Shown: piece by piece, positions 24,359-45,577 of the stretch
Layout of the letters: each line of letters starts with the position of its first letter
Numbering within the stretch: the first letter of the stretch is position 1
Assembly: GCA_043801155.1 (NCBI GenBank)
Contig: JAZDMI010000021.1
Location: 2,683 to 66,682 of the forward strand
Source: Candidatus Gottesmanbacteria bacterium
Lineage (GTDB): Bacteria; Patescibacteriota; Microgenomatia; JAMCYU01
DNA length: 64,000 nucleotides
Direction of reading: 5' to 3'
Made by a program: the position numbers and the translations under genes
The notes under the pieces: generated by a model
The model's database searches: none
What the model was told of the DNA's origin: nothing
Seen by the model: only the letters and a program-made list of their open reading frames with translations

Positions 24359-24360
24359 AT

Positions 24361-24455
24361 TTAAACTTGTTCTCGAGCTTCAGGATTTATTGACATAAGA
24401 AAGATATTCTACACATTCAAGTTATAATATACAAATCCTGACTAATTCCCACATC
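24361..24455 (-). repeat. copy 1 of a ~95-nt promoter plus 5'-coding module (includes remnant uORF 24361-24396, MSINPEAREQV*)
   Basis: About 85% identical by eye to 25943-26041. On the minus strand it reads TTGTAT-N17-TAGAAT-N9-ATG. Confidence 0.7.
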
Positions 24456-24550
24456 GGTATTCTACCGAAACGGCTTTCCATATAAATGTGCCATTTCTGA
24501 GTGAGACACACTATGATAAAATGGGAACAATAACGGAAAGAAATTAACAC

Positions 24551-25982: not shown

Positions 25983-26041
25983 AAGAGAGATATTCTACAT
26001 ATTTGAGTTATAATATACAAATTCTGCCAAATTCCCATCTC
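25943..26041 (-). repeat. copy 2 of the ~95-nt promoter plus 5'-coding module
   Basis: Aligns with 24361-24455 (TTCAGGATTTATTG[AC]CATAAGA.AGATATTCTACA...GTTATAATATACAAAT). Confidence 0.7.
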
Positions 26042-26112
26042 TAAATTTATCTATGTCTCGGATAATAACTCATTAAAATGTATAGGCCAGCCACGTACAG
26101 TCGCCGAAATCC

Positions 26113-26198
26113 CGTTAATTAGACCCATATTACGGTTATATTAACGGTATATTGACAAAATATCGTTAATATGTTAACATATTGTGATGAGATTAACG
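26113..26198 (+). promoter_or_regulatory. Fic promoter with candidate operators
   Basis: TTGACA at 26152-26157. Perfect 16-bp palindrome AATATGTTAACATATT at 26168-26183, abutting the GTG start. CGTTAAT/ATTAACG inverted pairs at 26113-26146 and 26164-26198. Confidence 0.5.
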
Positions 26199-27056: not shown

Positions 27057-27060
27057 GAGA

Positions 27061-27109
27061 AAATCAAAAAAGTCAAAAGAGAGGAAAGAGGAGAGAGAAA
27101 AATTTAATG
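27061..27109 (+). repeat. polypurine intergenic linker, copy A
   Basis: AAATCAAAAAAGTCAAAAGAGAGGAAAGAGGAGAGAGAAAAATTTAATG. About 90% identical to 27576-27626. Confidence 0.75.
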
Positions 27110-27577: not shown

Positions 27578-27626
27578 AAATTAAAAAAGTCAGAAGAGAG
27601 AGGAAAGAAGAGAGAGGAAAATTATG
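27576..27626 (+). repeat. polypurine intergenic linker, copy B
   Basis: AAAAATTAAAAAAGTCAGAAGAGAGAGGAAAGAAGAGAGAGGAAAATTATG. Confidence 0.75.
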
Positions 27627-31617: not shown

Positions 31618-33972
31618 ATGAACGAAGCAGAAACACGAGCCGAATATATTGATCCAAAACTGAAAGCTAGCGGTTGGGGAGAAGTTGAGGGATCAAAAGT
31701 ATTACGGGAATATCGTATCACCGAAGGACGGATTTTGGTTGGTGGAATACGTGCTAAACCGGAAATTGCTGATTATATCCTCGTATACAAAAACCAAAAA
31801 CTGGCAATTATTGAAGCAAAGCCGGATGAATCTGCCGTTACAGAGGGTGTCGCTCAAGCAAAAGTCTACGCCCAGAAGATGCAGATTGATTATACCTACT
31901 CAACCAACGGTAAAGAAATTTATCAAATTTCCATGAAATCCGGGAAAGAAGAGATTGTAGATGCGTTTTCGACCCCGGATGAGTTATGGAAAAAAGTGTA
32001 TTCAGATCAAAATGAATGGAAAGAGAAATTTGCTTCAATTCCTCTTGAGGGAGAATTAGGGAAACGATACTACCAGGAATCAGCCATTAATAACGTTATG
32101 AATGCGATTGCTGAAGATAAGAAACGAGTGCTACTTACTATGGCAACAGGAACCGGTAAGACAGCGATTGCATTTCAGACCTCTTGGAAGCTATATCAAA
32201 CGCGTTGGACTTTACAACGTGATGGAAATCGGCGTCCGAGAATTCTTTTTCTTGCCGATAGAAATATTCTTGCGGATCAAGCGTTTAATACCTTCGGTGC
32301 TTTTCCGGAAGATGCATTAGTTCGAATTAATCCTCTTGATATTCGGAGGAAGGGATTAGTTCCGATGAACGGAAGTATCTTTTTCACTATTTTTCAAACA
32401 TTTATGAGCGGACCGCAGGGAACACCTTATTTTGGTGATTATCCTCCTGATTTTTTTGATTTTATTGTCATTGATGAATGTCATCGTGGAGGAGCTAATG
32501 ATGAGGGAAACTGGCGCGGAATTTTAGAGTATTTTTCTCCAGCAGTTCAGCTTGGATTAACGGCCACACCAAAAAGAAGAGATAACGTAGATACATATAG
32601 ATATTTTGGCGATCCGGTATATATTTATTCACTTAAGGAAGGGATTAATGATGGATTTTTGACACCTTTTAAGGTGAAACGTATCCAAACAACCCTTGAT
32701 GAATATGTGTACACATCTGACGACCAAGTAATTGAAGGAGAAGTTGAAGCCGGTAAGGTATATAAAGAGCCTGATTTTAATAAAATCATAGAAATAAAAG
32801 AGCGCGAGGCAAAACGAGTTCAATTGTTGCTTGAGAATATAAACCAGAACGAGAAAACAATTGTTTTTTGTGCAACCCAGGATCATGCCCTAGCGGTACG
32901 GGATCTGGTAAATCAATATAAAAAAAGTAAAGATCCTTTTTACTGCGTCCGGGTAACGGCTAATGACGGAGCGCGTGGCGAGCAATATTTACGAGAATTT
33001 CAGGATAATGAAAAGACGATTCCTACGATATTAACCACTTCACAAAAGCTTTCTACTGGTGTTGATGCCAGAAATATCCGTAATATCGTTCTTATGCGTC
33101 CGGTTAATACCATGATCGAATTTAAACAGATTATTGGGCGTGGAACTCGGTTATTTGACGGAAAAGAATATTTTACAATCATTGATTTTGTTGATGCGTA
33201 TAAACTTTTTTTAGATCCTGAATGGGACGGCGAACCGATAGCGAATATTTGCCCAAAGTGTAACCAGGATCCCTGTATTTGCGAAAAAACTCCGCCGAAA
33301 GTTTGTCCTATTTGCGGGCAAAGACCGTGTATTTGTATTAGAGAACCAAGAATTTGTCCAATATGTGGAAAATTCCCATGTGAATGTGAATCAAAAAAGA
33401 AAATAAAAATAAAACTGCGCGATGGCAAAGAGCGAGAGATTCAACATATGATTTCTACTTCTTTTTGGGGGGCAGATGGTAAACCGATGTCGTCGGAGGA
33501 GTTTATTCAAAGCCTTTATGGAGTATTGCCGGATCTGTTTAAAAACGAAGAGGAACTTCGGAATATATGGTCAAATCCTGTGACAAGGAAACGATTTTTG
33601 GAACGGCTTTTTGATATTGGCATTGATTTAGAACAGATAGAAAATATTACCAAGATTGTTAATGCTGAACAATGTGATTTTTATGATGTGCTCTTGTATC
33701 TTGCATTTAGCAATCCACTCATTACACGTAAACAGCGGGCTGAGAAGAATAAAAATCATATTTTTGAAAATTTGTCTGATAAAGAAGGAGAATTTCTCAA
33801 CTTCGTACTGAAAAAATATGAAGAAACCGGATTTGAAGAACTTGACGAGGAGAAATTACCAATACTTCTGAATCTAAAATACCACGCTATTGCAGACGCA
33901 GAAGAAGCACTAGGAAATGTAGAAAATATTAGAGCAACATTCTTAGGATTTCAGGAAGATCTCTATAGCTAG
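31618..33972 (+). CDS. hsdR: type I restriction enzyme, R subunit (EcoEI/IB-like C-terminal region)
   Basis: HSDR_N-like MNEAETRAEYIDPKL, D..EAK nuclease core, MATGTGKT, DECHRG, C-terminal EcoEI_R_C-like region. Three CPxC-x3-PCxC repeats. Confidence 0.9.
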   Translation: MNEAETRAEYIDPKLKASGWGEVEGSKVLREYRITEGRILVGGIRAKPEIADYILVYKNQKLAIIEAKPDESAVTEGVAQAKVYAQKMQIDYTYSTNGKEIYQISMKSGKEEIVDAFSTPDELWKKVYSDQNEWKEKFASIPLEGELGKRYYQESAINNVMNAIAEDKKRVLLTMATGTGKTAIAFQTSWKLYQTRWTLQRDGNRRPRILFLADRNILADQAFNTFGAFPEDALVRINPLDIRRKGLVPMNGSIFFTIFQTFMSGPQGTPYFGDYPPDFFDFIVIDECHRGGANDEGNWRGILEYFSPAVQLGLTATPKRRDNVDTYRYFGDPVYIYSLKEGINDGFLTPFKVKRIQTTLDEYVYTSDDQVIEGEVEAGKVYKEPDFNKIIEIKEREAKRVQLLLENINQNEKTIVFCATQDHALAVRDLVNQYKKSKDPFYCVRVTANDGARGEQYLREFQDNEKTIPTILTTSQKLSTGVDARNIRNIVLMRPVNTMIEFKQIIGRGTRLFDGKEYFTIIDFVDAYKLFLDPEWDGEPIANICPKCNQDPCICEKTPPKVCPICGQRPCICIREPRICPICGKFPCECESKKKIKIKLRDGKEREIQHMISTSFWGADGKPMSSEEFIQSLYGVLPDLFKNEEELRNIWSNPVTRKRFLERLFDIGIDLEQIENITKIVNAEQCDFYDVLLYLAFSNPLITRKQRAEKNKNHIFENLSDKEGEFLNFVLKKYEETGFEELDEEKLPILLNLKYHAIADAEEALGNVENIRATFLGFQEDLYS

Positions 33973-33976
33973 TTTT

Positions 33977-34005
33977 TTGCATTTTCTGTCCTTCCTAATT
34001 CAATC
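33977..34005 (+). promoter_or_regulatory. promoter-like module J1 (TTGCATTTTCTG class, weak -10)
   Basis: TTGCAT at 33977-33982. No good -10 at N17. Confidence 0.35.
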
Positions 34006-34036
34006 AATTTTTATTATGGCTTTTAATTAGAATTAG

Positions 34037-34110
34037 TGTTATAATAATAGTGGTTTAAGCGGTCTGCGTTTGGCAGACGACTATTGCAGCCTATCAGGGC
34101 TGCTTTTTTT
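34037..34110 (+). ncRNA. candidate small RNA or attenuator leader (extended -10 promoter, two hairpins, terminator)
   Basis: TGtTATAAT at 34037-34045. GTCTGC/GCAGAC hairpin at 34062-34078. GCAGCC-tatcag-GGCTGC plus T7 at 34086-34110. The RBS and ATG of the next ORF follow directly. Confidence 0.4.
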
Positions 34111-34130
34111 ATGGAAGGAGGTGAAAAAAG

Positions 34131-34430
34131 ATGCAAATTGATAAAGATAAATCAACTTATGTTCTTCCGTATCAGGTAATAATTCTTGATGCGACTGATG
34201 CTTATTACTATGCAGATATAATGGATAATATGAAACTCTTTGATGAGACAGATTCATTATCTTTAGCAGAGAAATTGGCCGATGCTCTATTTATTGTATA
34301 TAACTATAAATGGAACAGTCTGGAAGAAATGAATAAGGTTGACGGAGGATATGATATAAGAGTTTATGATCAAAAATATTCTTGTGTCTATGCAGCTCAT
34401 AAGAAATATCTGAATAAATGGATAATCTAA
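34131..34430 (+). CDS. hypothetical protein
   Basis: GGAAGGAGGTG RBS. 99 aa. Confidence 0.55.
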   Translation: MQIDKDKSTYVLPYQVIILDATDAYYYADIMDNMKLFDETDSLSLAEKLADALFIVYNYKWNSLEEMNKVDGGYDIRVYDQKYSCVYAAHKKYLNKWII

Positions 34431-34458
34431 CTGGTAAATAAAAGGATAAAATAAAAAT

Positions 34459-34902
34459 ATGAAAAAAAGTTACAGCGCCGGAGGATTGGTGGTTAATAAA
34501 TATGGTCAGATATTGGTTGTCAACCAATACGGAAACTCATGGTCATTACCTAAAGGGCATATTGAACCCGGAGAAGATATTTTGACTACGGCAAAAAGAG
34601 AAATCACCGAAGAATCCGGGATAACTGATCTAAAGTTAATAAAAGAGTTAGGGTCTTACGAAAGGCCGAGACTCGGATTAGACCCAAGAAATAATGACAT
34701 CTCGAAAGTAAAAAATATAACTCTTTTTCTATTTGTAACAGATCAACTCGAGACAAAACCTCAAGATTTAGACAATCCCGAGGCTATTTGGCTTAAACCA
34801 AGAAAAGCAGTTGGACGTCTGACGAGCAAGAAAGACAAGGAGTTTCTTCAAAAAAGTCTACGTTTGATAGATCTTAAAAAATTAATTAGCTTCACACCTT
34901 AA
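34459..34902 (+). CDS. NUDIX hydrolase
   Basis: Nudix box GHIEPGEDILTTAKREITEESGI. Confidence 0.85.
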   Translation: MKKSYSAGGLVVNKYGQILVVNQYGNSWSLPKGHIEPGEDILTTAKREITEESGITDLKLIKELGSYERPRLGLDPRNNDISKVKNITLFLFVTDQLETKPQDLDNPEAIWLKPRKAVGRLTSKKDKEFLQKSLRLIDLKKLISFTP

Positions 34903-34931
34903 AGGTGGACTAGGTTCACACCTTCTTCCTT

Positions 34932-34960
34932 TTGCCTTTTTGGGACGGCTGATTTAAATC
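34932..34960 (+). promoter_or_regulatory. promoter-like module J2a
   Basis: TTGCCT-TTTTGGGACGGCTGATT-TAAATC. Confidence 0.5.
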
Positions 34961-34966
34961 ACATTT

Positions 34967-34995
34967 TTGCATTTTCGTTTCTTCTGACCTAAACT
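34967..34995 (+). promoter_or_regulatory. promoter-like module J2b
   Basis: TTGCAT-N17-TAAACT, 10 nt before ATG 35006. Confidence 0.6.
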
Positions 34996-35005
34996 TCAAG
35001 TAGAT

Positions 35006-35242
35006 ATGAATAGTCACGTAAGGTTTATAAAGGCAATTAATATCTGCCTTAAATATGACGAAATAAACACCCATTTACTTCAAAGAAAATTAATGATCGG
35101 TTATTCTACCGCACATATAATTTTCAAGAAACTAAAGGAATTAAAAGTTATAACCGGAGAAAAATATATCTATAATCCCTTTGGAAAAGTTAAAGTTGGA
35201 ACAGTTGACAAAAAGACTGCCAGGTTTTATTTAGTCAACTAA
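35006..35242 (+). CDS. stand-alone FtsK-gamma-like winged-helix protein
   Basis: INTHLLQRKLMIGYSTAHIIFKKLKELKVI resembles the FtsK gamma motif (LLQRRLRIGYNRAARLI). Confidence 0.55.
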   Translation: MNSHVRFIKAINICLKYDEINTHLLQRKLMIGYSTAHIIFKKLKELKVITGEKYIYNPFGKVKVGTVDKKTARFYLVN

Positions 35243-35260
35243 TAAATTTTGTAAATTTCT

Positions 35261-35289
35261 TTGCCTTTTTGAGTATGATGATCTAAACT
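35261..35289 (+). promoter_or_regulatory. promoter-like module J3
   Basis: TTGCCT-N17-TAAACT, 9 nt before GTG 35299. Confidence 0.6.
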
Positions 35290-35298
35290 GGGATTAGA

Positions 35299-35814
35299 GT
35301 GGATATTGATATTAGTGGTCTTTTCAGAAAATCTTTCATTGACTCCTTACCCACCTTATTTTATTTATTAATTCCAATAATAATAATTTCAGGTCTGGTT
35401 ATTGCCATAAAAATTGGTTATTATTTTTACCGCCAGCATATCTATAATAAGGCCGGGTTGGATAAAATTGATAAAATGCCCGGTTACGTTTTTGAAGAAT
35501 ACCTTACAAATCTGTTTGCCCGGTTAGGTTACAGAGTAAATCATATTGGTAAGTTTGGAGATTTTGGGGGAGATTTAATTATCGAAAAAGATGGAATGAA
35601 AACATTAGTTCAGGCGAAAAGATCAAGTGATAGAATAAGAGAGAAAGCAATTCAGGAAGCCGTAACTGCAAAAGAGTACTACCATTGTGATAAAGCTATG
35701 GTAGTTACTAATAATTATTTTTATAAACATGCGTGGACGTTGGGCAAGGGAACAAATATAGACTTATGGGCAAGAAATAAATTGGCTGAAGTTATCTCTC
35801 AGAATATAAATTAA
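35299..35814 (+). CDS. membrane-anchored Mrr-like restriction endonuclease domain protein
   Basis: N-terminal TM. FEEYLTNLFARLGY...GDFGGDLIIEKDGMKTLVQAKRS (D-x12-QAK, Mrr_cat-like). Confidence 0.7.
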   Translation: MDIDISGLFRKSFIDSLPTLFYLLIPIIIISGLVIAIKIGYYFYRQHIYNKAGLDKIDKMPGYVFEEYLTNLFARLGYRVNHIGKFGDFGGDLIIEKDGMKTLVQAKRSSDRIREKAIQEAVTAKEYYHCDKAMVVTNNYFYKHAWTLGKGTNIDLWARNKLAEVISQNIN

Positions 35815-35819
35815 TTCTT

Positions 35820-35848
35820 TTGCCTTTTTGGGTCTGCTGATTTAAACT
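35820..35848 (+). promoter_or_regulatory. promoter-like module J4
   Basis: TTGCCT-TTTTGGGTCTGCTGATT-TAAACT. Confidence 0.6.
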
Positions 35849-35867
35849 AATATTATAGGAATATTCA

Positions 35868-36584
35868 ATGATTAAAATTAATACCACATTTATTAATACT
35901 TCTTCTGATAATTCTTCAAAAGGTTCTCCGGGGAATATACAATTTAACTTTAAATCATCATATTCTTTTAACAACAAATTATTATTTCATTTAGATTTTA
36001 AAGATCCTTCTCTCTATTTGCTATTATTTACAAATTTATCAACTATTTATTTTGCCTATATAGAACACTGGAATCTTTTAACAGTGATGTGGATATACTG
36101 GTTCCAGAGTATAATCATTGGTTTATTCACGTTTGTTAGACTAATAAACTTGCGAAATTATAATTCTCGGGCAATCTCTTTTATTATTAGTTATGGAATA
36201 TTTCATATGGGATTTCTGGTTTTTCTATTGTTAGGATTTTTAGGCAATGCTACTAGGGGAATAGTCTCTGAATTTGGTTTTGTTTTGATGTCCGCCTTTT
36301 TATTTTTCGTCAACCACTTATTTTCTTATTTTTATAATAAAGATCGTGATCAGGAAGGATTTATTTTTCACAAAGATGTAGATAGAATAATCTCGATTTC
36401 ATATATGCGTATAATACCCATGCATATAATAATTATTCTCGGGCAAATTATAACTTCAATTTTTTTATCGGAGGCAAGATACACTCTTTTTCTCTTTTTA
36501 TTTTTAAAGACTTATGCTGATTTATATTCCCATACACTTAAGCATACATCTGCTGCTTCGCCAATAGATGTAAAGAATTCTTAA
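35868..36584 (+). CDS. hypothetical multi-pass membrane protein
   Basis: At least 5 hydrophobic helices. 238 aa. Confidence 0.55.
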   Translation: MIKINTTFINTSSDNSSKGSPGNIQFNFKSSYSFNNKLLFHLDFKDPSLYLLLFTNLSTIYFAYIEHWNLLTVMWIYWFQSIIIGLFTFVRLINLRNYNSRAISFIISYGIFHMGFLVFLLLGFLGNATRGIVSEFGFVLMSAFLFFVNHLFSYFYNKDRDQEGFIFHKDVDRIISISYMRIIPMHIIIILGQIITSIFLSEARYTLFLFLFLKTYADLYSHTLKHTSAASPIDVKNS

Positions 36585-36596
36585 ATTTTATAATTT

Positions 36597-36625
36597 TTGC
36601 ATTTTCTGCCATTTTGATCTAGACT
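36597..36625 (+). promoter_or_regulatory. promoter-like module J5
   Basis: TTGCAT-TTTCTGCCATTTTGATC-TAGACT. RBS AAGAGGA before ATG 36647. Confidence 0.6.
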
Positions 36626-36646
36626 TCGTAAACAAGAGGACCATAT

Positions 36647-37519
36647 ATGACTTTTAATCCAAATGCTGTTTTCATTTCTCCTTCATCCATCTCTGATTTT
36701 AAAACATGTCCACAAACTTATTATTATCGGAATGTCTATAGAAATCCGAAGACTGGATTAAAAATACAAATAATTAATCCAAAACTAGCGCTTGGTGCAA
36801 CAGTGCATGATATATTAGCTCAATTCCTACACACCCAGGGAATAGAAAAAACTAAAGATCAATTACTCAATATCCTTCAGAGATATTGGGGACAGATTAC
36901 TGGTGAAAAAGGAGGATTTAAAACAGAAGAGGAAGAAAAACAATACAAAGAAAGGGCATCAAAAATGTTGGATATTTTTTGGGGAAATAACCATTTTAGG
37001 GAGGTACAACCGGTAAAACTACCCGATTTCCCAAAGGTATATTTTGATGACGATTTAATTCTCACTGGAAAACTTGACTGGATTGAGCTAGAGACAGAAA
37101 ATAAATATCACATCATTGACTTTAAAACTGGAGAAAACGAAGAACGAAGCGATTCTATGCAATTACCTATTTATGCCGTTCTTGCTTCAAATATTTTAAA
37201 AACCTCTGAAATAAAAGCAAGCTATTGGTATCTTGATAGAGATGCCGACTTGAAAAAATTCGATCTGCCCGATTTAAAAGAAACAACAGAAAAACTTAAA
37301 AAAATTGGTTATGTAATTAAAAATAGTCGGTTAACAAATTCTTTTAAATGCAGTTCGGGATACGAGTCGTGTTGGTCTTGTAAAGATTTGCTATCCATTA
37401 GCAATGGAAAGGGTAAACTTGTTTCTGTTGATTACAATCGTAAACAAGAAGTTTATATAATTCCTCCAACAGAAGATAAGCCTATATTAGAAAAACCTAT
37501 TGATGACATTCCTTTCTAA
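36647..37519 (+). CDS. PD-(D/E)XK nuclease, Cas4/RecB-like with 4-Cys cluster signature
   Basis: N-terminal FKTCPQ Cys. IIDFKTG core. QLPIYA. C-terminal C-x6-C-x2-C (CSSGYESCWSC). Confidence 0.7.
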   Translation: MTFNPNAVFISPSSISDFKTCPQTYYYRNVYRNPKTGLKIQIINPKLALGATVHDILAQFLHTQGIEKTKDQLLNILQRYWGQITGEKGGFKTEEEEKQYKERASKMLDIFWGNNHFREVQPVKLPDFPKVYFDDDLILTGKLDWIELETENKYHIIDFKTGENEERSDSMQLPIYAVLASNILKTSEIKASYWYLDRDADLKKFDLPDLKETTEKLKKIGYVIKNSRLTNSFKCSSGYESCWSCKDLLSISNGKGKLVSVDYNRKQEVYIIPPTEDKPILEKPIDDIPF

Positions 37520-37547
37520 AGAATATGTTTATATCTTCTTCTTCTTT

Positions 37548-37576
37548 TTGCATTTTCTGACTTTCTGATTTAGACT
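37548..37576 (+). promoter_or_regulatory. promoter-like module J6
   Basis: TTGCAT-TTTCTGACTTTCTGATT-TAGACT. Confidence 0.6.
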
Positions 37577-37612
37577 ATGGGTAACTATAGAAATTTAAAT
37601 TGGTGAGTAAAA

Positions 37613-37828
37613 ATGATAAAAATAAAAATTGCTGATTGGGAGAAAAAGAAATATCCGCTCGAAGATCCTAAAGATATTGAGGTTTTAGGGAAAATTCATG
37701 AATTGGAAAATCTTCCGCTTTCTTCCGAAGACAAGAAGTTGGTTAATTTTATCCGCACCCAACTTGAGGAAGATTGGCAAACTCCCTGTCTTAATTTCCT
37801 CGAAGATATCTTAAAGAAATATAGATAG
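37613..37828 (+). CDS. hypothetical protein
   Basis: 71-aa ORF downstream of module J6. Confidence 0.45.
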   Translation: MIKIKIADWEKKKYPLEDPKDIEVLGKIHELENLPLSSEDKKLVNFIRTQLEEDWQTPCLNFLEDILKKYR

Positions 37829-37837
37829 AACCTAAAA

Positions 37838-37866
37838 TTGCCTTTTTGGGTTTACTTTTTGAAACT
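37838..37866 (+). promoter_or_regulatory. promoter-like module J7, pointing into the 3' end of a minus-strand gene
   Basis: TTGCCT-TTTTGGGTTTACTTTTT-GAAACT. The next gene, 37872-38795, is on the minus strand. Confidence 0.4.
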
Positions 37867-37871
37867 GTTGA

Positions 37872-38795
37872 TTATTCAAACAAGCAGGCGACACCTAGAC
37901 AGTCTTTGCCGGTATAAACAGCCAAAACTTTGCCGGCCTCGCAGTAGTCAATGGCTTTTGGGCTTAGATTATATCTAGCGGCTAATAAATCAGTCATTTC
38001 CTGGGCTCTTCCCTCATTGTTGGTATGAGTAACCAGGGCTCTTTTGAGAACTTTTCCTTTTGCCTTTTCTTTTTCGATTAGTTCAATTATCTTTTCCGGA
38101 ATGCCTTTTTTACCTCGAGATAGAAGTTTAGGAATCAGCTTTGCTTCTTGTAGGTCAACAATAGGATACACTTTAAAAGCCATAGCCAAAGCTGCGACCG
38201 CTGTTCGTACGCCTTCCAGTCCTTCTTTAGAAATTCGCCTGCCCGCACTTTTTAGAAAATAAGCGGCATCGGACACGGCAATAAAAAGTTTAATATTTTG
38301 TGCCTTTAGCTCAAGTTTTCTGGATATTTCCTCAAAAGGTATATCTTGTTTTAAAAGCTCAATTGCTTCAGGAATGAGAATGCCTGCTCCGACAGAAACC
38401 GATTGGGTGTCCAAAACTTGAATTTTCATGTCGGGGTACTTACGTTTTATCGCTTCAGTCGCAGCGGTAGCACTATTAACCCCACAAGTTAAACGTACAT
38501 CCGAGAGGATAGTAAAGATTTCATTAATGCCAAAATGAGTAGCCAAACTTTCATAAGCCTTTTCGAACTGACCAAGATTAGCACCTGACGTATTAAATAA
38601 TTCCGCTGATTTTCCAAGACGATCATAAAAATCTGGTGTTTTAATTATAAAATCGGGTAATGGTTTTTCTTCGATAGTAATCCAGCTAGGAAGAGAAATA
38701 ACTCGTATCCCTGACTCGTTGCGAAAGTCAGCAGCCCGATGAGGGTCTAAAGAAGTAGTACTATCAGTTATCAGGGCTCGTTCCGGAGTAGCCAT
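37872..38795 (-). CDS. DegV family (fatty-acid binding) protein
   Basis: N-terminal ALITDSTTSLDP and overall DegV-like length and pattern. Confidence 0.55.
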   Translation of the reverse strand: MATPERALITDSTTSLDPHRAADFRNESGIRVISLPSWITIEEKPLPDFIIKTPDFYDRLGKSAELFNTSGANLGQFEKAYESLATHFGINEIFTILSDVRLTCGVNSATAATEAIKRKYPDMKIQVLDTQSVSVGAGILIPEAIELLKQDIPFEEISRKLELKAQNIKLFIAVSDAAYFLKSAGRRISKEGLEGVRTAVAALAMAFKVYPIVDLQEAKLIPKLLSRGKKGIPEKIIELIEKEKAKGKVLKRALVTHTNNEGRAQEMTDLLAARYNLSPKAIDYCEAGKVLAVYTGKDCLGVACLFE

Positions 38796-38869
38796 ACTTT
38801 TTTCGGGTAAAAGGTTGGGATCACTGTAACAGAATTGGTTTCGCCAGTCAAATCCTTCTAAGAATTTTT

Positions 38870-38894
38870 ACCCCGTACTAGTCGGTACGGGACT
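38870..38894 (+). repeat. junction repeat with perfect hairpin CCCGTAC-tagtcg-GTACGGG
   Basis: 21 of 24 positions match 43198-43222, where the hairpin is degraded. Confidence 0.6.
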
Positions 38895-38902
38895 TCTTAA
38901 AA

Positions 38903-38931
38903 TTGCCTTTTTGGGTCTTCGATAATAATCA
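38903..38931 (+). promoter_or_regulatory. promoter-like module J8
   Basis: TTGCCT-TTTTGGGTCTTCGATAA-TAATCA. Confidence 0.45.
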
Positions 38932-38971
38932 AAATTTGTTGATTTGACGGGACAATATATAATAATAAGGT

Positions 38972-39277
38972 ATGAGAACACGGGCAGAAATTGAAAATAG
39001 GCCATCTTCCGGATCTAAATTAATAATTTGGAACAATGGACAGGGAAATTATTATGACTTTTTTAATTGTGGTGGAGAAAAAATACCAATAGAGGAGACT
39101 CTTGGGGGAGAACTATGTTTGCTTTGCGGGGTTGTTAGAGAACAACTAAAAAAGAATAACATCACCGGTTGTTTTACAATTTTTTCGTCCGACCTTCTTC
39201 CTGGTTCCAAAATTCAAGCAGCCACTAAAAAAGATTCAAAAGTAGCAGGAGTTCCCCTGATTCTTAAAATCTCCTAA
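38972..39277 (+). CDS. hypothetical protein
   Basis: 101-aa ORF with no motif I recognise. Confidence 0.45.
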   Translation: MRTRAEIENRPSSGSKLIIWNNGQGNYYDFFNCGGEKIPIEETLGGELCLLCGVVREQLKKNNITGCFTIFSSDLLPGSKIQAATKKDSKVAGVPLILKIS

Positions 39278-39349
39278 GATTTAACTTTTTTTACATTAAG
39301 ATTAAGACGGGTGGAATTTTGAACGTGGTAGGTTCATATCTTAGGATTT

Positions 39350-39378
39350 TTGCATTTTATTTTTTCTAGTTTCTATTA
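39350..39378 (+). promoter_or_regulatory. promoter-like module J9, pointing into the 3' end of the 694-aa minus-strand gene
   Basis: TTGCAT at 39350-39355 with a weak -10 (CTATTA). Preceded by GTGGTAGGTTCATATCTT, which is homologous to 34904-34923. Confidence 0.3.
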
Positions 39379-41463
39379 CTAGTAAATTTTTGACCGGTAA
39401 TCAACAATCATTATTTCCAACTTACCCTCATCTCTCATTTTAAGTAAGACCCTTCCGCCGGAATGAATATGAGGTAGGGGAACTCTTAAACGATAAACCC
39501 CATCTGAATCCTCGATTTTAACAAGATGAGGATCTAAAATTTGCTGGCGTTTATTAAAATTAATAATAGCTTGTTGAACAAAACCTCTTTCTTCTGTAGA
39601 AAATCCTTTCATTAAAAGTTCCAGTTCTTCAGACGTCGGTTCGATGATCGTTAGTTTTCCGGTTAAAGCCTGTTCTTCTTCGGTGACTGGTTTTTCTTCA
39701 CCATCTTTTTTAATAGTTTCCCTTGTTTCTTCAACTCTTATCTGCCTTCTTAATTCATAGGTAACATCATGAAAATGCACTTTTGGCAGCGATGACTTGA
39801 GTGGTTCTTGATTACCGTCCTTAAGAGTGTTTTTTAATTTTTGATGTTCCAGATAATCCGCTAAGTGCGTTAAGGTTTTCAGTACAATTTCCTGGCAACC
39901 TTGTTTGTAGATATGGTTATTGGATTCATTGATCGAATCAAGAACCATCCAGTCAAAAGTCTCTTTTGTCGCATCGATGCTTAAGAGAAGAAAAATTTCC
40001 TCATCTTCTTCACTTGTTTTATCTATAAACTCAAATGCCATACCAAATTTACGGGGATGATAAGGATCTGCTATGAGAGAAGCAGCGTCAGGTTTTTTTA
40101 AAAATTGTAAATTATTTGGTAATTGATCAGCATCTAAACTAAATTTTCTTTCCTTGTTAGTCTTAGTAATTCTGTCTATCTGTCTCTTGACCTCTTGCCA
40201 ATTAAAATCATTATCTGTTTCGGATATTTCTTCATTCGCTAAAATGTCTTTTAATTCTTCACCGCTAAGGACTATTTGTGCCAGTCTCATTTTTTTCCGG
40301 TAGTTTTCGATATTTTCAACTAGCTTCTTATAAAAAGGAATACTCGTTTCCTTTTTAACCAAATTTGTAGCTGCACGGTAGAATCCAATCGTTTGTATGG
40401 CAGAATTAAAGCCAAGGAGTAAAAATAAATATCGGCGATGATAAGTATTTTCGTCCTGGAGGTATTTCTCAAAAAGATTGATAAGTTCCATATCAGGTTG
40501 GCCATCTTTAGGAAAAAGACGCCTAAAGACTTCTTTTCTTAGCAGGGACAATTTATCTACCAGCTCTACTGCTTTTTCTACAATTTCAGTTGCTGGCTGA
40601 CTATTGGACCTAACTGCTTCTTGAATGTCTGTTTTAGAGATATCTGCCTTGAGGAATTGTGCTACTCTAACGCTAAATTGTGCAAAATCTCCCTCAATTG
40701 CCAAAGGATAATATTTAAGTAAAGGATTCCGGCTGATTTGTTCAGCAATAATATGTTCAGGTAGTTCTTCAAACGGTTCAATAGCTGATGACTCTACAAA
40801 TAAACGGACAAAAGGTACTAAGGATTCACGATCTTTATTAGAAAAGTTCATAAATTCAATTAATGAAGCTCCTTGAATAGAAAAATTAGTATGAGTTGAA
40901 TATTGATAATCGGAAAGAGTAAAGAAGTCTTCAGCCCCTTGATAAAAATTTCTCGTCTGGGCGAATCGTTTTAGTGAATTAATCTTTCCATGGCAATATA
41001 AAGAGAGCCCGAAATCCAATGCAAACTTGATACCTCTTATTTTACAATTTTTCCAGGATAATTCGGTGTCCTCGTTTAAAGACGAAGCTGGTTCGCCATC
41101 GGGAACTTTTTCCAGAAAACCATAGGCATTTTGCATATCATCTTGGATTTGTATTAGCTTTTTACTCCAGTCTTCAGTTGTTTCCCATCCGAAAGGGTTA
41201 ACTGTATCAGTTAAAGACTTAATATTATTTCCAAATTCATTTTTTTGCTTCATGGCTCGTATCAAATATTCTAGATAAGTAGGAACTTTCTTTTTCATAT
41301 CGTCTGTAAATACCTGATCCATATTTTTAAATAAATCTGATTCTAAAAGTGATTCAACGGTAGGCAAGTTAGTAGAATCCTGGTCTTCCGCCTTATCCAG
41401 GAGGTAGCCTTTAAGTGCGTTATCTGGGCCTTCAATATAATCTATTTCAAACTTAGCTGACAT
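39379..41463 (-). CDS. large orphan protein with a RelE/ParE-like C-terminal domain
   Basis: 694 aa. C-terminus YRLRVPLPHIHSGGRVLLKMRDEGKLEIMIVDYRSKIY matches the RelE/ParE pattern (YRLRV..YRvvY....v.vl.v.hR..iY). I do not recognise the N-terminal ~600 aa. Confidence 0.6.
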   Translation of the reverse strand: MSAKFEIDYIEGPDNALKGYLLDKAEDQDSTNLPTVESLLESDLFKNMDQVFTDDMKKKVPTYLEYLIRAMKQKNEFGNNIKSLTDTVNPFGWETTEDWSKKLIQIQDDMQNAYGFLEKVPDGEPASSLNEDTELSWKNCKIRGIKFALDFGLSLYCHGKINSLKRFAQTRNFYQGAEDFFTLSDYQYSTHTNFSIQGASLIEFMNFSNKDRESLVPFVRLFVESSAIEPFEELPEHIIAEQISRNPLLKYYPLAIEGDFAQFSVRVAQFLKADISKTDIQEAVRSNSQPATEIVEKAVELVDKLSLLRKEVFRRLFPKDGQPDMELINLFEKYLQDENTYHRRYLFLLLGFNSAIQTIGFYRAATNLVKKETSIPFYKKLVENIENYRKKMRLAQIVLSGEELKDILANEEISETDNDFNWQEVKRQIDRITKTNKERKFSLDADQLPNNLQFLKKPDAASLIADPYHPRKFGMAFEFIDKTSEEDEEIFLLLSIDATKETFDWMVLDSINESNNHIYKQGCQEIVLKTLTHLADYLEHQKLKNTLKDGNQEPLKSSLPKVHFHDVTYELRRQIRVEETRETIKKDGEEKPVTEEEQALTGKLTIIEPTSEELELLMKGFSTEERGFVQQAIINFNKRQQILDPHLVKIEDSDGVYRLRVPLPHIHSGGRVLLKMRDEGKLEIMIVDYRSKIY

Positions 41464-41522
41464 TTTTTTATTTTATCATATTTATTTCGTTTTCCTTTAT
41501 AGTAAAGAATAAACCTATACTT

Positions 41523-41551
41523 TTGCATTTTCTTTTCTTCAATATTTCCAA
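41523..41551 (+). promoter_or_regulatory. promoter-like module J10 (weak -10)
   Basis: TTGCATTTTCTTTTC. The ORF-track TTG start at 41523 is this hexamer. Confidence 0.3.
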
Positions 41552-41576
41552 TAATAATGATAAAATAAACAACAAT

Positions 41577-41843
41577 ATGGTGCGGATAGAAAGTAAGTGT
41601 CTGCCCGACGGGAAAATGTTGAATATTCAATATCAGACGTCAGAAGGGCTTACAAATTTTTTTAACATCCTTTTATGTGCTGCCAGTAGAATTCCCAAAG
41701 GGAGTCCAATATATCCTCAAGCACAAATAGTTTTACAACAAATACAAGCTTTTTCTGAAGGTTCGGATGAGCCGTTTGATGGAATTGCCATAGCCAAGGT
41801 TTTAAAATCTGCTAAGTCAATTAGACCCCCAAAACAAAATTAA
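41577..41843 (+). CDS. hypothetical protein
   Basis: First ATG downstream of module J10. 88 aa. Confidence 0.45.
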   Translation: MVRIESKCLPDGKMLNIQYQTSEGLTNFFNILLCAASRIPKGSPIYPQAQIVLQQIQAFSEGSDEPFDGIAIAKVLKSAKSIRPPKQN

Positions 41844-41858
41844 GAATTTGACAAATCC

Positions 41859-41887
41859 TTGCCTTTTTCATATAAAATAGGTAAAAT
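41859..41887 (+). promoter_or_regulatory. promoter-like module J11
   Basis: TTGCCT-N17-TAAAAT. An overlapping TTGACA(41848)-N17-TATAAA is also present. Confidence 0.6.
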
Positions 41888-41909
41888 CCAGGTAAATAAA
41901 GGAGGCTAT

Positions 41910-42107
41910 ATGTGTCAAAAGCAGGAAGCAGATGAAGAATCAGGTGATGGAATGATGTTTGGCGGAATGATAATAGGAAGACTGGATCAAGATACGTCTT
42001 GGTCAAAATACGCCATGGAGAATTTAGAACCTGAGCAAAAAGAACGACTTATTGAATCAGTTAGAATTCAGAAGGTTCGTCCAAAGGTTAATCCCCAAGT
42101 CAAATAA
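41910..42107 (+). CDS. hypothetical protein
   Basis: AGGAGG RBS 6 nt upstream of ATG 41910. The ORF-track start at 41859 is the -35 TTG. Confidence 0.55.
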   Translation: MCQKQEADEESGDGMMFGGMIIGRLDQDTSWSKYAMENLEPEQKERLIESVRIQKVRPKVNPQVK

Positions 42108-42122
42108 GAACCTCGTTATTTT

Positions 42123-42151
42123 TTGCATTTTTACTCATATGATTGAAAATC
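42123..42151 (+). promoter_or_regulatory. promoter-like module J12
   Basis: TTGCATTTTTAC... with a poor -10. It overlaps the candidate ATG at 42139. Confidence 0.3.
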
Positions 42152-42417
42152 TGGGGCAGGCTATTTCTCAAGCACAGGCAGATGGATTTATAACCGAAGA
42201 ATACGGTAGGCTTATCTTAGATACAGCTAAGCTAGAATATCGTGAATGCCGGAATTGCCCTCTCCCTAATTTGTGGCGTGAGTTTTTAGAAGATCAAGGA
42301 CCATACCCGGTTTTAACCCTTGACCTTTTGTTAAAAAATATTGCTGAAAGACGAATATATTTTAGAGAGAAAGGTTGGCTTCCGCCCGATGAACCATCAC
42401 TAATTAATATTAAATAG
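42139..42417 (+). CDS. hypothetical protein (start uncertain)
   Basis: In-frame ATG after the stop of the preceding ORF. The upstream extension to 42052 overlaps the neighbouring gene. Confidence 0.4.
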   Translation: MIENLGQAISQAQADGFITEEYGRLILDTAKLEYRECRNCPLPNLWREFLEDQGPYPVLTLDLLLKNIAERRIYFREKGWLPPDEPSLINIK

Positions 42418-42428
42418 CCATTTAACTT

Positions 42429-42457
42429 TTGCCTTTTTCTGATAAAATAAATAGATG
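42429..42457 (+). promoter_or_regulatory. promoter-like module J13
   Basis: TTGCCTTTTTCTG. The N17 hexamer TAGATG overlaps ATG 42455, so its function is doubtful. Confidence 0.3.
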
Positions 42458-43198
42458 AATAATTCTAAAAAAATTAAGGATATTGTAAAAAATTCTTACG
42501 CAGAAATTGCTAAAGCCTCTGATAGTTGTGGGTGCAGTTGTGGTTGTAGTTCTAACCAGACTGTTCAACGCCAAACACAACAAATAGGTTATTCCCCGGA
42601 AGAAATTAATCAAGCGCCTTCCGGTTCTAATCTTGGGCTTGGATGTGGCAACCCGGTGGCAATTGCTTCATTAAAAGAAGGGGAAATAGTTTTGGATTTA
42701 GGTTCCGGCGCAGGATTTGATGCTTTTTTAGCAGCGCAAAAGGTTGGGACAACGGGTAAAGTCATTGGTGTTGATATGACTGAGGAAATGCTTGTCAAAG
42801 CACGAGCTAACGCTATAAAAGGTGGTTTTACCAACGTTGAGTTCAGAGAAGGAGATATTGAAAATTTGCCCTTAGATGACAACTCGGTTGATGTTGTTAT
42901 TTCTAATTGCGTTATCAACCTTAGCCCGGATAAAGAAAAAGTATTTAAGGGAATTTATCGGGTACTTAAACCAGGTGGAAGACTCATGGTATCTGATACT
43001 GTACTTTCAAAACCATTACCGGATGAACTGCGGGAAAATGAAGAATTATTAACCGGATGTGTAAGTGGAGCTATCCTTAAAAAGGATTACCTGTCATTAC
43101 TCCAAAAAACAGGCTTTTCCAATATAAAAATACAAAAAGAAAGACCGGGGTTTCTTGCAGACTACAGTATAAGTATTACCTACTCAGCAGTCAAATAA
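42455..43198 (+). CDS. arsM: arsenite S-adenosylmethionine methyltransferase-like (ArsM family)
   Basis: [49 protein letters not shown]. Confidence 0.8.
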
Positions 43199-43222
43199 CC
43201 CTGTACTAGTCGATTCGGGACT
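43198..43222 (+). repeat. degraded copy of the junction repeat
   Basis: ACCCTGTACTAGTCGATTCGGGACT versus ACCCCGTACTAGTCGGTACGGGACT. Confidence 0.6.
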
Positions 43223-43251
43223 TTGCATTTTTTCAGGTTTTAGTTTAATCT
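43222..43251 (+). promoter_or_regulatory. promoter-like module J14
   Basis: TTGCAT-N18-TAATCT. Confidence 0.45.
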
Positions 43252-43270
43252 GAAAATAGGACTTAAATTT

Positions 43271-43606
43271 ATGACCGAAATAATATATAAAACAAAATTT
43301 TTTTGTAACCTTTGCAAAAAAGATATTCCCCTGGAATTATATGGTAATAAAAACACTGAATTTACACGTGATCAGGAGCCGGAAATAATTACTCCAGGGA
43401 AGCATTACCACTGGGTTGATTTTCACCGTGTTTGTGCAATTTGCGGTCAACCAATCAAAGCGCAGGATTTAACCGTGGCGATGAATGACGGGATGATCAA
43501 AATTAATGAAAATTATACTGATGAATATAATATGATTGAACAAGGAAATAAATTCGGTGTTTTTCTCATTGTCCACAAAGAATGCGTCAAAAATATTAAG
43601 TTTTAA
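43271..43606 (+). CDS. hypothetical Cys-pair (zinc-ribbon-like) protein
   Basis: CNLCKK...CAICGQ. 111 aa. Confidence 0.45.
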   Translation: MTEIIYKTKFFCNLCKKDIPLELYGNKNTEFTRDQEPEIITPGKHYHWVDFHRVCAICGQPIKAQDLTVAMNDGMIKINENYTDEYNMIEQGNKFGVFLIVHKECVKNIKF

Positions 43607-43686
43607 TAAAATGTTGGCATAACTTCATATCCTTCCTTTTTATCTTTTTGTTTCTTCCAATATTAGTTTTTTGCCGATGAGTTATA

Positions 43687-44274
43687 ATGAATTCAATGAA
43701 TATTACCGCGAAATTTATTAAAGGTATTATTGGGACTGATGATATTTTATATGACGGGAAATTTCAGGTTTGCTTCATGGGCCGTTCCAATGTTGGCAAA
43801 TCAACCCTGATTAACACTCTCACCCAAATTAAAGATCTTGCCCGTTCAAGTTCCGATCCCGGGAAAACCATCCGCATGGATTTTTTTCTCATCAATGATA
43901 AATACTATTTTGTTGATTTTCCCGGCTATGGTTATGCCAAGCGTTCACAGGAAAAAAGGGAAAAGCTGGCCAAAATGATCCTTTGGTATCTTATGTATTC
44001 GCAAGTCAAAAAGAGACTGGTGATCCTGATAATTGATGCTCAAGTGGGGATGACTCCTTATGATCTAGACATGTTAAAAACCCTGCATGAAGAAAAAGTT
44101 GATTATTTTATCGTTGCCAACAAGATCGATAAACTAAAAATGAATGAAAAGGCAAAACAACTGGCAAAAATAAAAAGTGATTGTGGAAATTCAAATGTTA
44201 TTCCTTTTTCTTCAAAAGATAAAAGAGAGAGAGTAAACCTTCTTTCGCAAATTTCCTCCCACCCTAGCTACTAA
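43687..44274 (+). CDS. engB: ribosome biogenesis GTPase YihA/EngB
   Basis: GRSNVGKSTLIN, DFPGYGYA, NKID. Confidence 0.85.
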   Translation: MNSMNITAKFIKGIIGTDDILYDGKFQVCFMGRSNVGKSTLINTLTQIKDLARSSSDPGKTIRMDFFLINDKYYFVDFPGYGYAKRSQEKREKLAKMILWYLMYSQVKKRLVILIIDAQVGMTPYDLDMLKTLHEEKVDYFIVANKIDKLKMNEKAKQLAKIKSDCGNSNVIPFSSKDKRERVNLLSQISSHPSY

Positions 44275-45548: not shown

Positions 45549-45577
45549 TTGCTTTATTTAACCATTAATGATATAAT
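45549..45577 (+). promoter_or_regulatory. sigma70-like promoter ~265 nt upstream of the DEAD-box helicase
   Basis: TTGCTT-N17-TATAAT, followed by the 5' hairpin CAATCTA/TAGATTG (45579-45598). Confidence 0.45.

Follow-up and report, generated by a model that had tools for sequence, protein, structure and literature searches.

A putative promoter-module family at the joints of a short-gene array in the expanded rpsJ–rplC interval of a Gottesmanbacteria genome

The 64,000-nucleotide (nt) stretch analysed here, called the window, covers positions 2,683 to 66,682 of the 272,544-bp contig JAZDMI010000021.1 from a metagenome-assembled genome of Candidatus Gottesmanbacteria; it is chromosomal and carries rpoBC, tuf and the ribosomal-protein operons. 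An island of 15 short genes is found at 34131–43606, and the gaps between these genes carry repeated copies of a promoter-like module of about 30 nt, which is the subject of this study. Positions are window coordinates, marked W where they stand beside loci of related genomes, which are given as L numbers. On the left of the island hsdR, the last gene of a type I restriction-modification operon, ends at 33972, and on the right engB, a DUF192 gene, obg and a DEAD-box helicase gene follow. The island genes encode, in order, a 99-amino-acid (aa) orphan, a Nudix protein, a 78-aa winged helix-turn-helix (wHTH) protein that is FtsK-gamma-like, an Mrr-type nuclease with an N-terminal membrane helix, a DUF6498 protein, a PD-(D/E)XK Cas4-like nuclease, a 71-aa orphan, DegV (minus strand), a 101-aa orphan, a 694-aa protein without Pfam family (minus strand), three orphans of 88, 65 and 92 aa, an ArsM-like methyltransferase and a 111-aa zinc-finger-like protein. 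This gene content is as named in an earlier note on the same DNA, which had recognised the Nudix, wHTH, Mrr, Cas4-like PD-(D/E)XK and ArsM-like methyltransferase genes and the small orphans. All 15 proteins and the neighbouring EngB correspond exactly, including their start codons, to the deposited entries MFH0863998–MFH0864013. A significant Pfam family is missing for 8 of the 15 genes, one of which has a sub-threshold zinc-finger hit alone, and all 15 proteins are singletons at 90% identity. The G+C content of the island genes is slightly below that of the backbone genes. PADLOC gives domain-level matches alone in the window (a ZorD-type Mrr nuclease domain and a Cas4-like one) and no complete defence system, and the Rfam search of the window gives no gathering-level match, with a single weak match near the first junction.

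The earlier note had listed 15 intergenic plus-strand copies of the box TTGC[AC]TTTT, and all of them are present, at 33977, 34932, 34967, 35261, 35820, 36597, 37548, 37838, 38903, 39350, 41523, 41859, 42123, 42429 and 43223; only the last start differs, having been given as 43222. In the whole 64 kb the box has 22 matches; the expectation is 5.0 ± 2.3, and none of 100 shuffles gave more than 10. Sixteen plus-strand matches fall within 33977–43231, 15 of them intergenic and one coding; the latter, an exact match at 38060 inside the minus-strand DegV gene that was absent from the earlier list, is best treated as a chance occurrence. A plus-oriented box is observed in 14 of the 15 island gaps and in 1 of the 34 gaps elsewhere in the window, namely at the rplC promoter (Fisher p = 3e-10), and no minus-oriented intergenic box exists in the window gaps. 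Within the window the motif is thus enriched in the island and does not precede genes in general. In most same-strand window gaps the module starts 5–30 nt past the preceding stop codon. The similarity had been claimed to reach past the hexamers, and this is real: the 20 nt after the box have a mean pairwise identity of 0.405, compared with 0.294 ± 0.016 for random intergenic 20-mers (null maximum 0.361), and the extended pattern TTGCMTTTT-N9-TGAYYTARA occurs in 6 copies against 0.01 expected. The proposed division into two subfamilies is likewise clear, with A being TTGCCTTTTTGGG... and B being TTGCATTTTCTG.... The longest module-to-module alignment in the window covers 30 nt at 93% identity (family D1), and the identical stretches common to modules are about 15–16 nt long.

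The layout of the modules is that of a promoter. The −35-like hexamer is TTGCAT or TTGCCT within a T-tract, the spacer is 17 bp and usually has CTGAT at its end, and the −10 hexamers of the family are TAAACT, TAGACT or TATAAT. In 8 of the 16 window copies TAnnnT is found exactly 17 bp after TTGCMT (binomial p = 5e-9). Among 33 modules across the genomes the spacing is 17 bp in 16 and 18 bp in 2, with 5 at the next most frequent spacing and 1–3 at the others. This sharp TAnnnT peak bears out the promoter-like character that had been assigned to the modules, and judged by their geometry they are most likely promoters for the housekeeping (sigma-70-type) RNA polymerase. Two other readings of TTGCA were dropped, the sigma-54 one because no GG element is found 12 nt upstream, and that of a T4 MotA box because the spacing to the −10 hexamer is 17 nt and not about 12.

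Complete modules, all on the plus strand, are found before many of the island genes. A tandem pair follows the Nudix gene, with an A-type module at 34932..34960 (TTGCCTTTTTGGGACGGCTGATTTAAATC) and, 35 nt on, a B-type module at 34967..34995 (TTGCAT-N17-TAAACT), from whose −10 hexamer the ATG of the wHTH gene is 10 nt away, so that the leader is near zero. A-type modules with TTGCCT-N17-TAAACT precede the Mrr-like nuclease gene (35261..35289; GTG start 9 nt past the −10) and the DUF6498 gene (35820..35848), the latter followed by a Shine-Dalgarno-like AGGA. B-type modules with TTGCAT-N17-TAGACT precede the PD-(D/E)XK gene (36597..36625) and the 71-aa orphan (37548..37576). Furthermore, TTGCCT-N17-TAAAAT at 41859..41887 has AAGGAGG behind it and then the ATG with which the 65-aa gene starts, and TTGCAT-N17-TAATCT at 43223..43251 stands before the zinc-finger-like gene.

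Other copies are less regular. The first module, at 33977..34005, is B-like (TTGCATTTTCTG...), begins 5 nt past the hsdR stop and has a poor −10 (TCAATC). The A-type module at 37838..37866 has GAAACT at the −10 position and lies in a convergent gap, 5 nt before the stop of the minus-strand DegV gene, and the B-like module at 39350..39378 lies at another convergent junction, ending 1 base before the stop of the minus-strand 694-aa gene. In divergent gaps, an A-type module with a poor −10 is found upstream of the 101-aa gene (38903..38931), with a second promoter-like site (38939–38966, TTGATT-N16-AATAAT) between the two, and a B-like module (TTGCATTTTCTTTTCTTC; 41523..41551) with a poor −10 at 17 bp is found before the 88-aa gene. 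The box at 42123..42151 stands alone, the ATG of the 92-aa gene being 16 nt past its start. At 42429..42457 the box is followed after 8 nt by an extended −10 (TGATAAAAT), from which it is 6 nt more to the ATG of the ArsM-like methyltransferase gene; this layout is compatible with a leaderless mRNA and places the box off the −35 position, and the same layout is seen at L107 9970. Outside the array, a degenerate plus-strand box (43671..43688; TTGCCG, with TATAAT 6 nt later) precedes the annotated engB ATG at 43696, which is 7 nt past the −10. The promoter of the DEAD-box helicase gene is a variant module on the plus strand (45549..45577; TTGCTT-N17-TATAAT), orthologous to L106 12324 (TTGCCT-N17-TATAAT) and to a site just downstream of L107 12292. 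The plus-strand copy at 57313..57341, which starts 7 nt past the stop of the upstream gene, has the sequence of a good promoter (TTGCAT-N17-TATAAT), lies 150 nt ahead of rplC and drives the rplC operon, as the earlier note had proposed.

A co-oriented box is present in the upstream gap of 12 of the 13 plus-strand island genes. The −10 hexamer is 6–7 nt from the ATG at L096 2472, L096 6182 and L106 14990, and 9–10 nt from the start codon at W 34967, W 35261 and L106 13821; at every distance of 19 nt or more a Shine-Dalgarno sequence intervenes (W 35820, 36597, 37548 and 41859). A −10 hexamer only 6–10 nt from a start codon that lacks a Shine-Dalgarno sequence implies leaderless or near-leaderless mRNAs. 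We infer that transcription starts at the modules, and each short gene of this one-directional array would then receive its own start, often with no leader or a very short one. The earlier description of the genes as individually promoted cassettes would hold for most plus-strand genes, which have a module upstream, and does not fit the copies at 37838, 39350, 42123 and 42429, which are the exceptions to the upstream-promoter placement. No terminator-like site is found between the island genes; the 10.5 kb examined contain one on the plus strand, outside any module. The junctions are unstructured, the z-scores of the minimum free energy of RNA folding being mostly above −2. Most other promoters of the window are of the TTGACA-N17-TATAAT or extended −10 types, including those of rpoB, tuf and both minus-strand island genes, and the same two types make up the other promoters in the L104 flanks of the closest relative. 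The window has only two promoters of the family beyond the island, that of rplC at 57313 and the variant of the DEAD-box helicase gene at 45549. The module had been likened to the host's strong promoter. This stands insofar as the same type drives rplC, the DEAD-box helicase gene and the yceG gene of a relative, and it does not stand as a statement on the generic host promoter, considering the single one of 34 outside gaps. A scan with the generic TTGACA/TATAAT consensus is uninformative (38 sites, 39.5 expected).

The gap between the first module and the 99-aa gene (34037–34110) has a content of its own. It contains an extended −10 (TGTTATAAT), two hairpins and a terminator-like site at 34086–34103 followed by T7, which is the sole plus-strand site of the 10.5 kb, and it folds with a z-score of −4.7. 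The gap could be a small RNA or an attenuator leader, and it matches no Rfam family.

Four related genomes were reached via homologues of three window proteins. R1 (JBFOMW010000021.1, loci L104 and L106) has Obg, DEAD-box helicase and L3 proteins 81% identical to those of the window. R2 is represented by the metagenome contigs L096–L099, which are 99.9% identical without indels and are counted as one strain; its PD-(D/E)XK, DEAD-box and YceG proteins are 83%, 62% and 56% identical. The Obg of R3 (JBFOMZ010000187.1, locus L107) is 75% identical, and the L3 of R5 (JBFOMW010000009.1, locus L109) about 70%. To be noted, the contigs of R1 and R5 are two large contigs (602 kb and 788 kb) of one assembly, GCA_040960625.1, each with a complete S10/spc operon and with differing L3, so this bin appears to be a mix of two related genomes.

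An array is also observed in R1 at L106, where 7 exact boxes and 1 variant lie on one strand within 3.6 kb and adjoin the same obg/DEAD/Zn-ribbon block. The array includes the A and B subtypes and a third subtype (C), one tandem pair and one box in a convergent gap. Its genes encode proteins of 41 and 76 aa, a 158-aa hydrolase, a 192-aa M23 peptidase and proteins of 127 and 269 aa, and none of them has a homologue in the window island. In R2, three B-type modules precede an orphan, the closest PD-(D/E)XK homologue and yceG. The view that every cassette is a mobile orphan needs correction at this point, since the PD-(D/E)XK gene has 686 homologues, those with a source name all being from bacteria of the candidate phyla radiation (CPR), and the closest one has a box upstream too (L096 2730). 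A sensitive DNA comparison between the island and the loci of the relatives recovers, besides the PD-(D/E)XK coding sequence, only modules and junction elements. Conserved intergenic joints between unconserved genes are the reverse of the usual pattern.

The resemblance of single modules points in the same direction. The best matches over spacer and −10 are found between genomes (W 37548 and L106 14990, 20/23; W 34967 and L096 2472, 19/23), so the family is old and conserved, and the assembly by local duplication of a junction module that had been suggested is not a recent one. When both window strands are scanned with a matrix derived solely from modules of R1, R2 and R5 (8 in all), 9 hits score above the shuffle maximum of 14.0 bits. 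All 9 are on the plus strand, in seven island gaps, at rplC and at the coding-region match 38060, and the top hit is the 34967 module with 34.8 bits. The rplC promoter, which stands at the right end of the rpsJ–rplC interval, is kept at the orthologous site in L104 (9860), L107 (5089) and L109 (9923), which makes it the most widely conserved member of the family. No modules are found in the more distant PD-(D/E)XK contexts (L100, L102, L103), and in the EngB-anchored comparison of GTDB species genomes the nearest loci are 58–68% identical and show neither synteny nor modules. Close synteny was not found in the GTDB and JGI scans, and a metagenome scan with the A-type pattern returned three unrelated single matches.

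The PD-(D/E)XK gene itself (36647–37519; L096 2843–3727) deserves a separate remark. Its product is 83% identical between the window and R2, compared with 62% for the flanking DEAD-box helicase and 56% for YceG, and no homologue from the closer relatives R1 and R5 is found in the best 120 of the 686 homologues, those 120 all being at least 52% identical. This patchy distribution suggests that the gene has been passed between lineages.

As the cassette idea implied, the locus is not static: in the relatives the modules recur with unrelated genes beside them, and one indel of a whole block is bounded exactly by two modules. Between R1 and R3 the 41-aa and 76-aa genes are homologous, and the homology continues into a C-type box, where it breaks off at L106 15613; it begins again at L106 12326, which is 2 bases ahead of the box of the DEAD-box helicase promoter. 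In R3 the two homology blocks are 2 nt apart (L107 12278 and 12275). A 3.29-kb block with five genes and further boxes (L106 15612–12327) is therefore present between the C-type and the DEAD-promoter boxes in R1 and absent in L107. This is one event in one pair of relatives. Tandem pairs of modules with nothing between them are seen at W 34932/34967 and at L106 15022/14990.

The island lies in an interval that has expanded as a whole. The distance from rpsJ to rplC is 34.4 kb in the window (22704–57464), 15.7 kb in L107 and 4.7 kb in L109, and the backbone common to these genomes consists of S10, MazG, LytR, a protein of about 470 aa and L3. The rpsJ–rplC interval is a gene-accretion zone in this clade. 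The two genes are normally adjacent, and here the interval collects restriction-modification, GmrSD, Fic, NYN and similar genes. The ribosomal protein L3 at its end (57464–57904) has 145 aa, compared with about 210 in the typical protein; the short form is common to the closest relatives (139–145 aa, with a 169-aa variant in P0126), and more distant Gottesmanbacteria have 190–230 aa.

Some junctions share more than the promoter. A 44-nt plus-strand element at 34885..34928 contains TTCACACCTT twice, overlaps the last Nudix codons and abuts the 34932 module. It is 95% identical to L107 9344–9301, which lies between a membrane-protein gene and yceG and is thus a non-orthologous junction. Within the element TTCACRCCTT occurs twice, 14 nt apart, and the Obg proteins of the two carrier genomes are 75% identical. 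The RNA fold of the element is not significant, so it may be a protein-binding site. A 26-nt element on the plus strand at 38870..38895, just upstream of the 38903 module, forms the one clear junction hairpin (CCCGTAC/GTACGGG), and a degenerate second copy on the same strand at 43198..43223 begins with the final base of the ArsM-like gene's stop; the two are 88% identical. The upstream sequence reported as shared between 34904–34940 and 39324–39358 is found again, with about 70% identity. In total, two junction pairs of the window have at least 26 nt in common upstream of the box.

Repeated joints of other kinds are seen in the accessory region beside the island. Two copies of a purine-rich junction (AAAAAGTCArAAGAGAGGAAAGArGAGAGAG) at 27057–27106 and 27578–27623 stand directly before the GNAT and hsdM genes and form a second, distinct repeated joint. 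A repeat of about 55 nt (AGATATTCTACAyATTyrAGTTATAATATACAAATyCTG...) is found in two divergent gaps, 24359–24550 and 25983–26183, and the minus-strand 124-aa and 120-aa genes beside it may be paralogues that were duplicated along with their promoter. Elsewhere in the window, a 757-aa open reading frame (ORF) at 1428–3701 fuses an IF-2B/e2b2-like domain of the ribose-1,5-bisphosphate isomerase type to both RuBisCO large-chain domains, and a Glycos_transf_3 gene (AMP/nucleoside phosphorylase-like) follows at 3689–4957. By its domains the 1428–4957 region looks like the CPR nucleotide-salvage RuBisCO pathway with two enzymes fused.

We lean towards the view that the modules are a lineage-restricted promoter family which marks the joints of a hyperplastic array within the expanded rpsJ–rplC interval. 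That they are the conserved joints of this array is probable in itself. The modules and their subtypes persist across related Gottesmanbacteria as the intervening genes are replaced, and would so act as fixed joints of the hyperplastic region, with gene blocks appearing or vanishing between adjacent modules. Any gene landing behind a module would be guaranteed expression, and the modules would probably provide short homologous stretches that influence at which sites gain and loss are successful. A causal part of the modules in recombination is a tentative possibility, towards the doubtful side, and the stronger form, in which they are the exchange sites of a CPR cassette system that has no recombinase or an unrecognised one and delivers captured genes already expressed, is unlikely.

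Several observations weigh against this picture. About half of the boxes have no good −10 hexamer at 17 bp, in line with the caveat of the earlier note that not every copy is a functional promoter. The boxes at W 37838, W 39350 and L106 12939 lie in convergent gaps with no gene to drive; the two window copies face the 3′ ends of minus-strand genes, so no plus-strand gene is promoted by them. At W 42123 and W 42429 the box is too near the start codon (16 and 26 nt) and cannot serve there as a −35 hexamer. The C-type boxes of L106 and L107 never have a −10 at 17 bp and always stand upstream of another promoter. At the orthologous junction of the 41-aa and 76-aa genes, the A-type box of L106 is largely absent in L107 and a downstream TTGATT-N16-TATAAT is kept, so the box is not always the −35 element. 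Apart from or on top of acting as a −35 hexamer, the T-flanked TTGCM box may accordingly have another function, for instance as an upstream or activator site, or it may be a relic of past joints. Furthermore, the L106/L107 indel left two boxes side by side and not one chimera, which points to insertion or deletion between modules and not to crossover within one. The identical stretches shared by modules, at about 15–16 nt, are short for RecA-dependent recombination. There is also no strain-level relative with which the events could be dated, the island proteins being singletons at 90% identity.

These points raise the question whether the modules are no more than a class of promoter, one strong flavour kept by selection on RNA polymerase binding, with no part in gene gain or loss; the array-like look would then come from a region packed with short, separately transcribed genes. 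The use of the same type at rplC in four genomes, at the DEAD-box helicase gene and at yceG in L096 agrees with this, and the conserved spacer positions, TTTT behind the −35 and CTGAT ahead of the −10, adjoin the hexamers and could plausibly be contacted by the polymerase. The modules are also as similar between genomes as within one genome, as selection and not copying predicts, and the L106/L107 indel is not a clean box-by-box crossover. What a promoter class leaves unexplained is the extra junction homology of 26–44 nt outside the promoter elements, at 95% across genomes at non-orthologous junctions, together with the tandem pairs and the complete modules with nothing to transcribe (W 37838, W 39350, L106 12939). 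The type is used in only one of the 34 window gaps outside the island and by none of the minus-strand array genes, and the sole resolvable indel has both its ends at modules. We therefore regard the pure promoter class as a serious contender that is somewhat unlikely.

If the box or the spacer instead bound a shared transcription factor, either the 78-aa wHTH protein or one encoded elsewhere, the modules would be operators of a regulon. Conservation beyond the hexamers, the B-type direct repeat TTTCTGA-C-TTTCTGA in W 37548 and the wHTH gene inside the array would suit such an operator, as would the variable distance between box and −10 (6, 8, 17, 25 and 38 nt), which an activator site could tolerate. 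No regulator gene is common to the arrays of the window, L106, L096 and L107, however, the rplC promoter with its box is an unlikely partner of a defence or accessory regulon, and the strict 17-bp peak fits a −35 role; an operator is thus very unlikely. A signal at the RNA level, with the U-rich box (UUUUGCMUUUU) as a termination or processing site of the upstream transcript, would account for the position of the box 5–30 nt past the stop in most gaps after a same-strand gene, convergent gaps included, and for the lack of intrinsic terminators between island genes. It is highly improbable, because boxes occur in divergent gaps that have no same-strand upstream gene (W 38903, W 41523, L106 12324, L096 2472), the unstructured junctions show no consistent hairpins before the T-tracts, and the 17-bp link to TAnnnT and the distance of 6–7 nt to the ATG stay unexplained. 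The one-directional single-gene array, with a repeated element at every joint and a minority of genes inverted as in integrons, recalls site-specific recombination sites of the integron or another kind, or the early-gene region of an integrated phage. This is hardly credible, since no integrase, recombinase or transposase domain is found in the 59 window ORFs, up to L2, scanned against Pfam or in the precomputed Pfam lists of the relatives' loci, and the modules have no inverted-repeat architecture. A phage origin was rejected as well: 10 island proteins have no PHROG match, and the extended motif gives 75 single chance-level hits and no arrays in IMG/VR.

A comparison of the modules as conserved joints with described systems leads to the promoter-early stem-loop (PeSL) cassettes of T4-type phages (Arbiol et al. 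2010, PMC2839356; Comeau et al. 2014, PMC4122927). In these phages the PeSL occupies the interval from the stop of one gene to the start of the next; it is conserved and contains a strong sigma-70-like promoter. PeSLs crowd in hyperplastic regions, where orphan genes are inserted, deleted and replaced through them with no recombinase dedicated to the task (PMC2839356, PMC4122927). They are the closest analogue of the window modules, which are not members of that family. In both systems a sigma-70-like promoter, putative in the modules, sits in the stop-to-start gap, units of several subtypes are dense in hyperplastic regions of small orphan genes, and related genomes differ by gene insertion, deletion or replacement beside the units, with no dedicated recombinase. 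They differ in that the PeSL stem-loop terminates transcription, whereas here a few junctions have an extra hairpin or element and the genes are not separated by terminators; in that conservation extends over about 100 bp in PeSLs and over a core of about 30 nt in the modules; and in that the host is a bacterial chromosome and not a T4-like phage. In addition, mini-circles and intra-unit crossovers have been shown by experiment for PeSLs, and the one indel seen among the modules left two of them side by side.

Putative mobile promoters (PMPs; Matus-Garcia et al. 2012, 'promoter propagation in prokaryotes', PMC3488235) are likewise homologous upstream sequences before non-homologous genes, within one genome and between genera. 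Their definition, which demands more than 50 nt at 80% identity or above, excludes the modules with their aligned length of about 30 nt. PMPs also tend to be scattered, whereas the modules form a one-directional cluster in a conserved zone of the chromosome. The longest alignment of window modules, 30 nt, is below the PMP length, and the 95% identity of the 44-nt junction element is one between genomes. Integrons share with the array its one-directional, mostly single-gene units, the repeated boundary element, the occasional inversion and the content that varies between relatives. They need IntI, attI and attC sites (imperfect inverted repeats of 55–141 bp with a GTTRRRY core), and their cassettes are mostly promoterless and read from Pc, whereas the modules are asymmetric and contain no inverted repeat, no integrase is found among the scanned ORFs, and each gene has its own promoter-like sequence. 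The modules thus lack every structural hallmark of integrons, as the earlier note had maintained. Phage morons, as described in PMC2839356, are single accessory genes with their own promoter inserted between other genes; they carry unrelated promoters and terminators and have no conserved flanks, whereas here the flanking module is the conserved part. The literature searched describes neither such modules nor a promoter consensus of any kind for Gottesmanbacteria or Microgenomates, and the sole CPR organism with transcription start site data in a cross-phylum compilation is Nanosynbacter lyticus (PMC12641261). As far as we could find, such an arrangement has been described in T4-type phages and in no bacterial chromosome.

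The genomes of CPR bacteria are tiny and contain few known mobile elements, and next to nothing has been learned of how these bacteria transcribe their genes or acquire new ones. Our analysis provides a concrete, testable promoter consensus for one clade of Gottesmanbacteria, with signs of leaderless mRNAs, and identifies the rpsJ–rplC zone as a site at which genes of accessory and defence type gather downstream of a conserved expression module. With the module as a search key, such arrays can readily be sought in other metagenome-assembled genomes. If the modules do guide gene exchange, cellular genomes would share a mechanism that has been described for T4-type phages alone, and it would help to explain the flexible gene pool of reduced organisms that have neither integrons nor transposons. 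The array would then be for cells what PeSL shuffling is for phages, an alternative to integrons in function, placed at the edge of the main ribosomal-protein operon.

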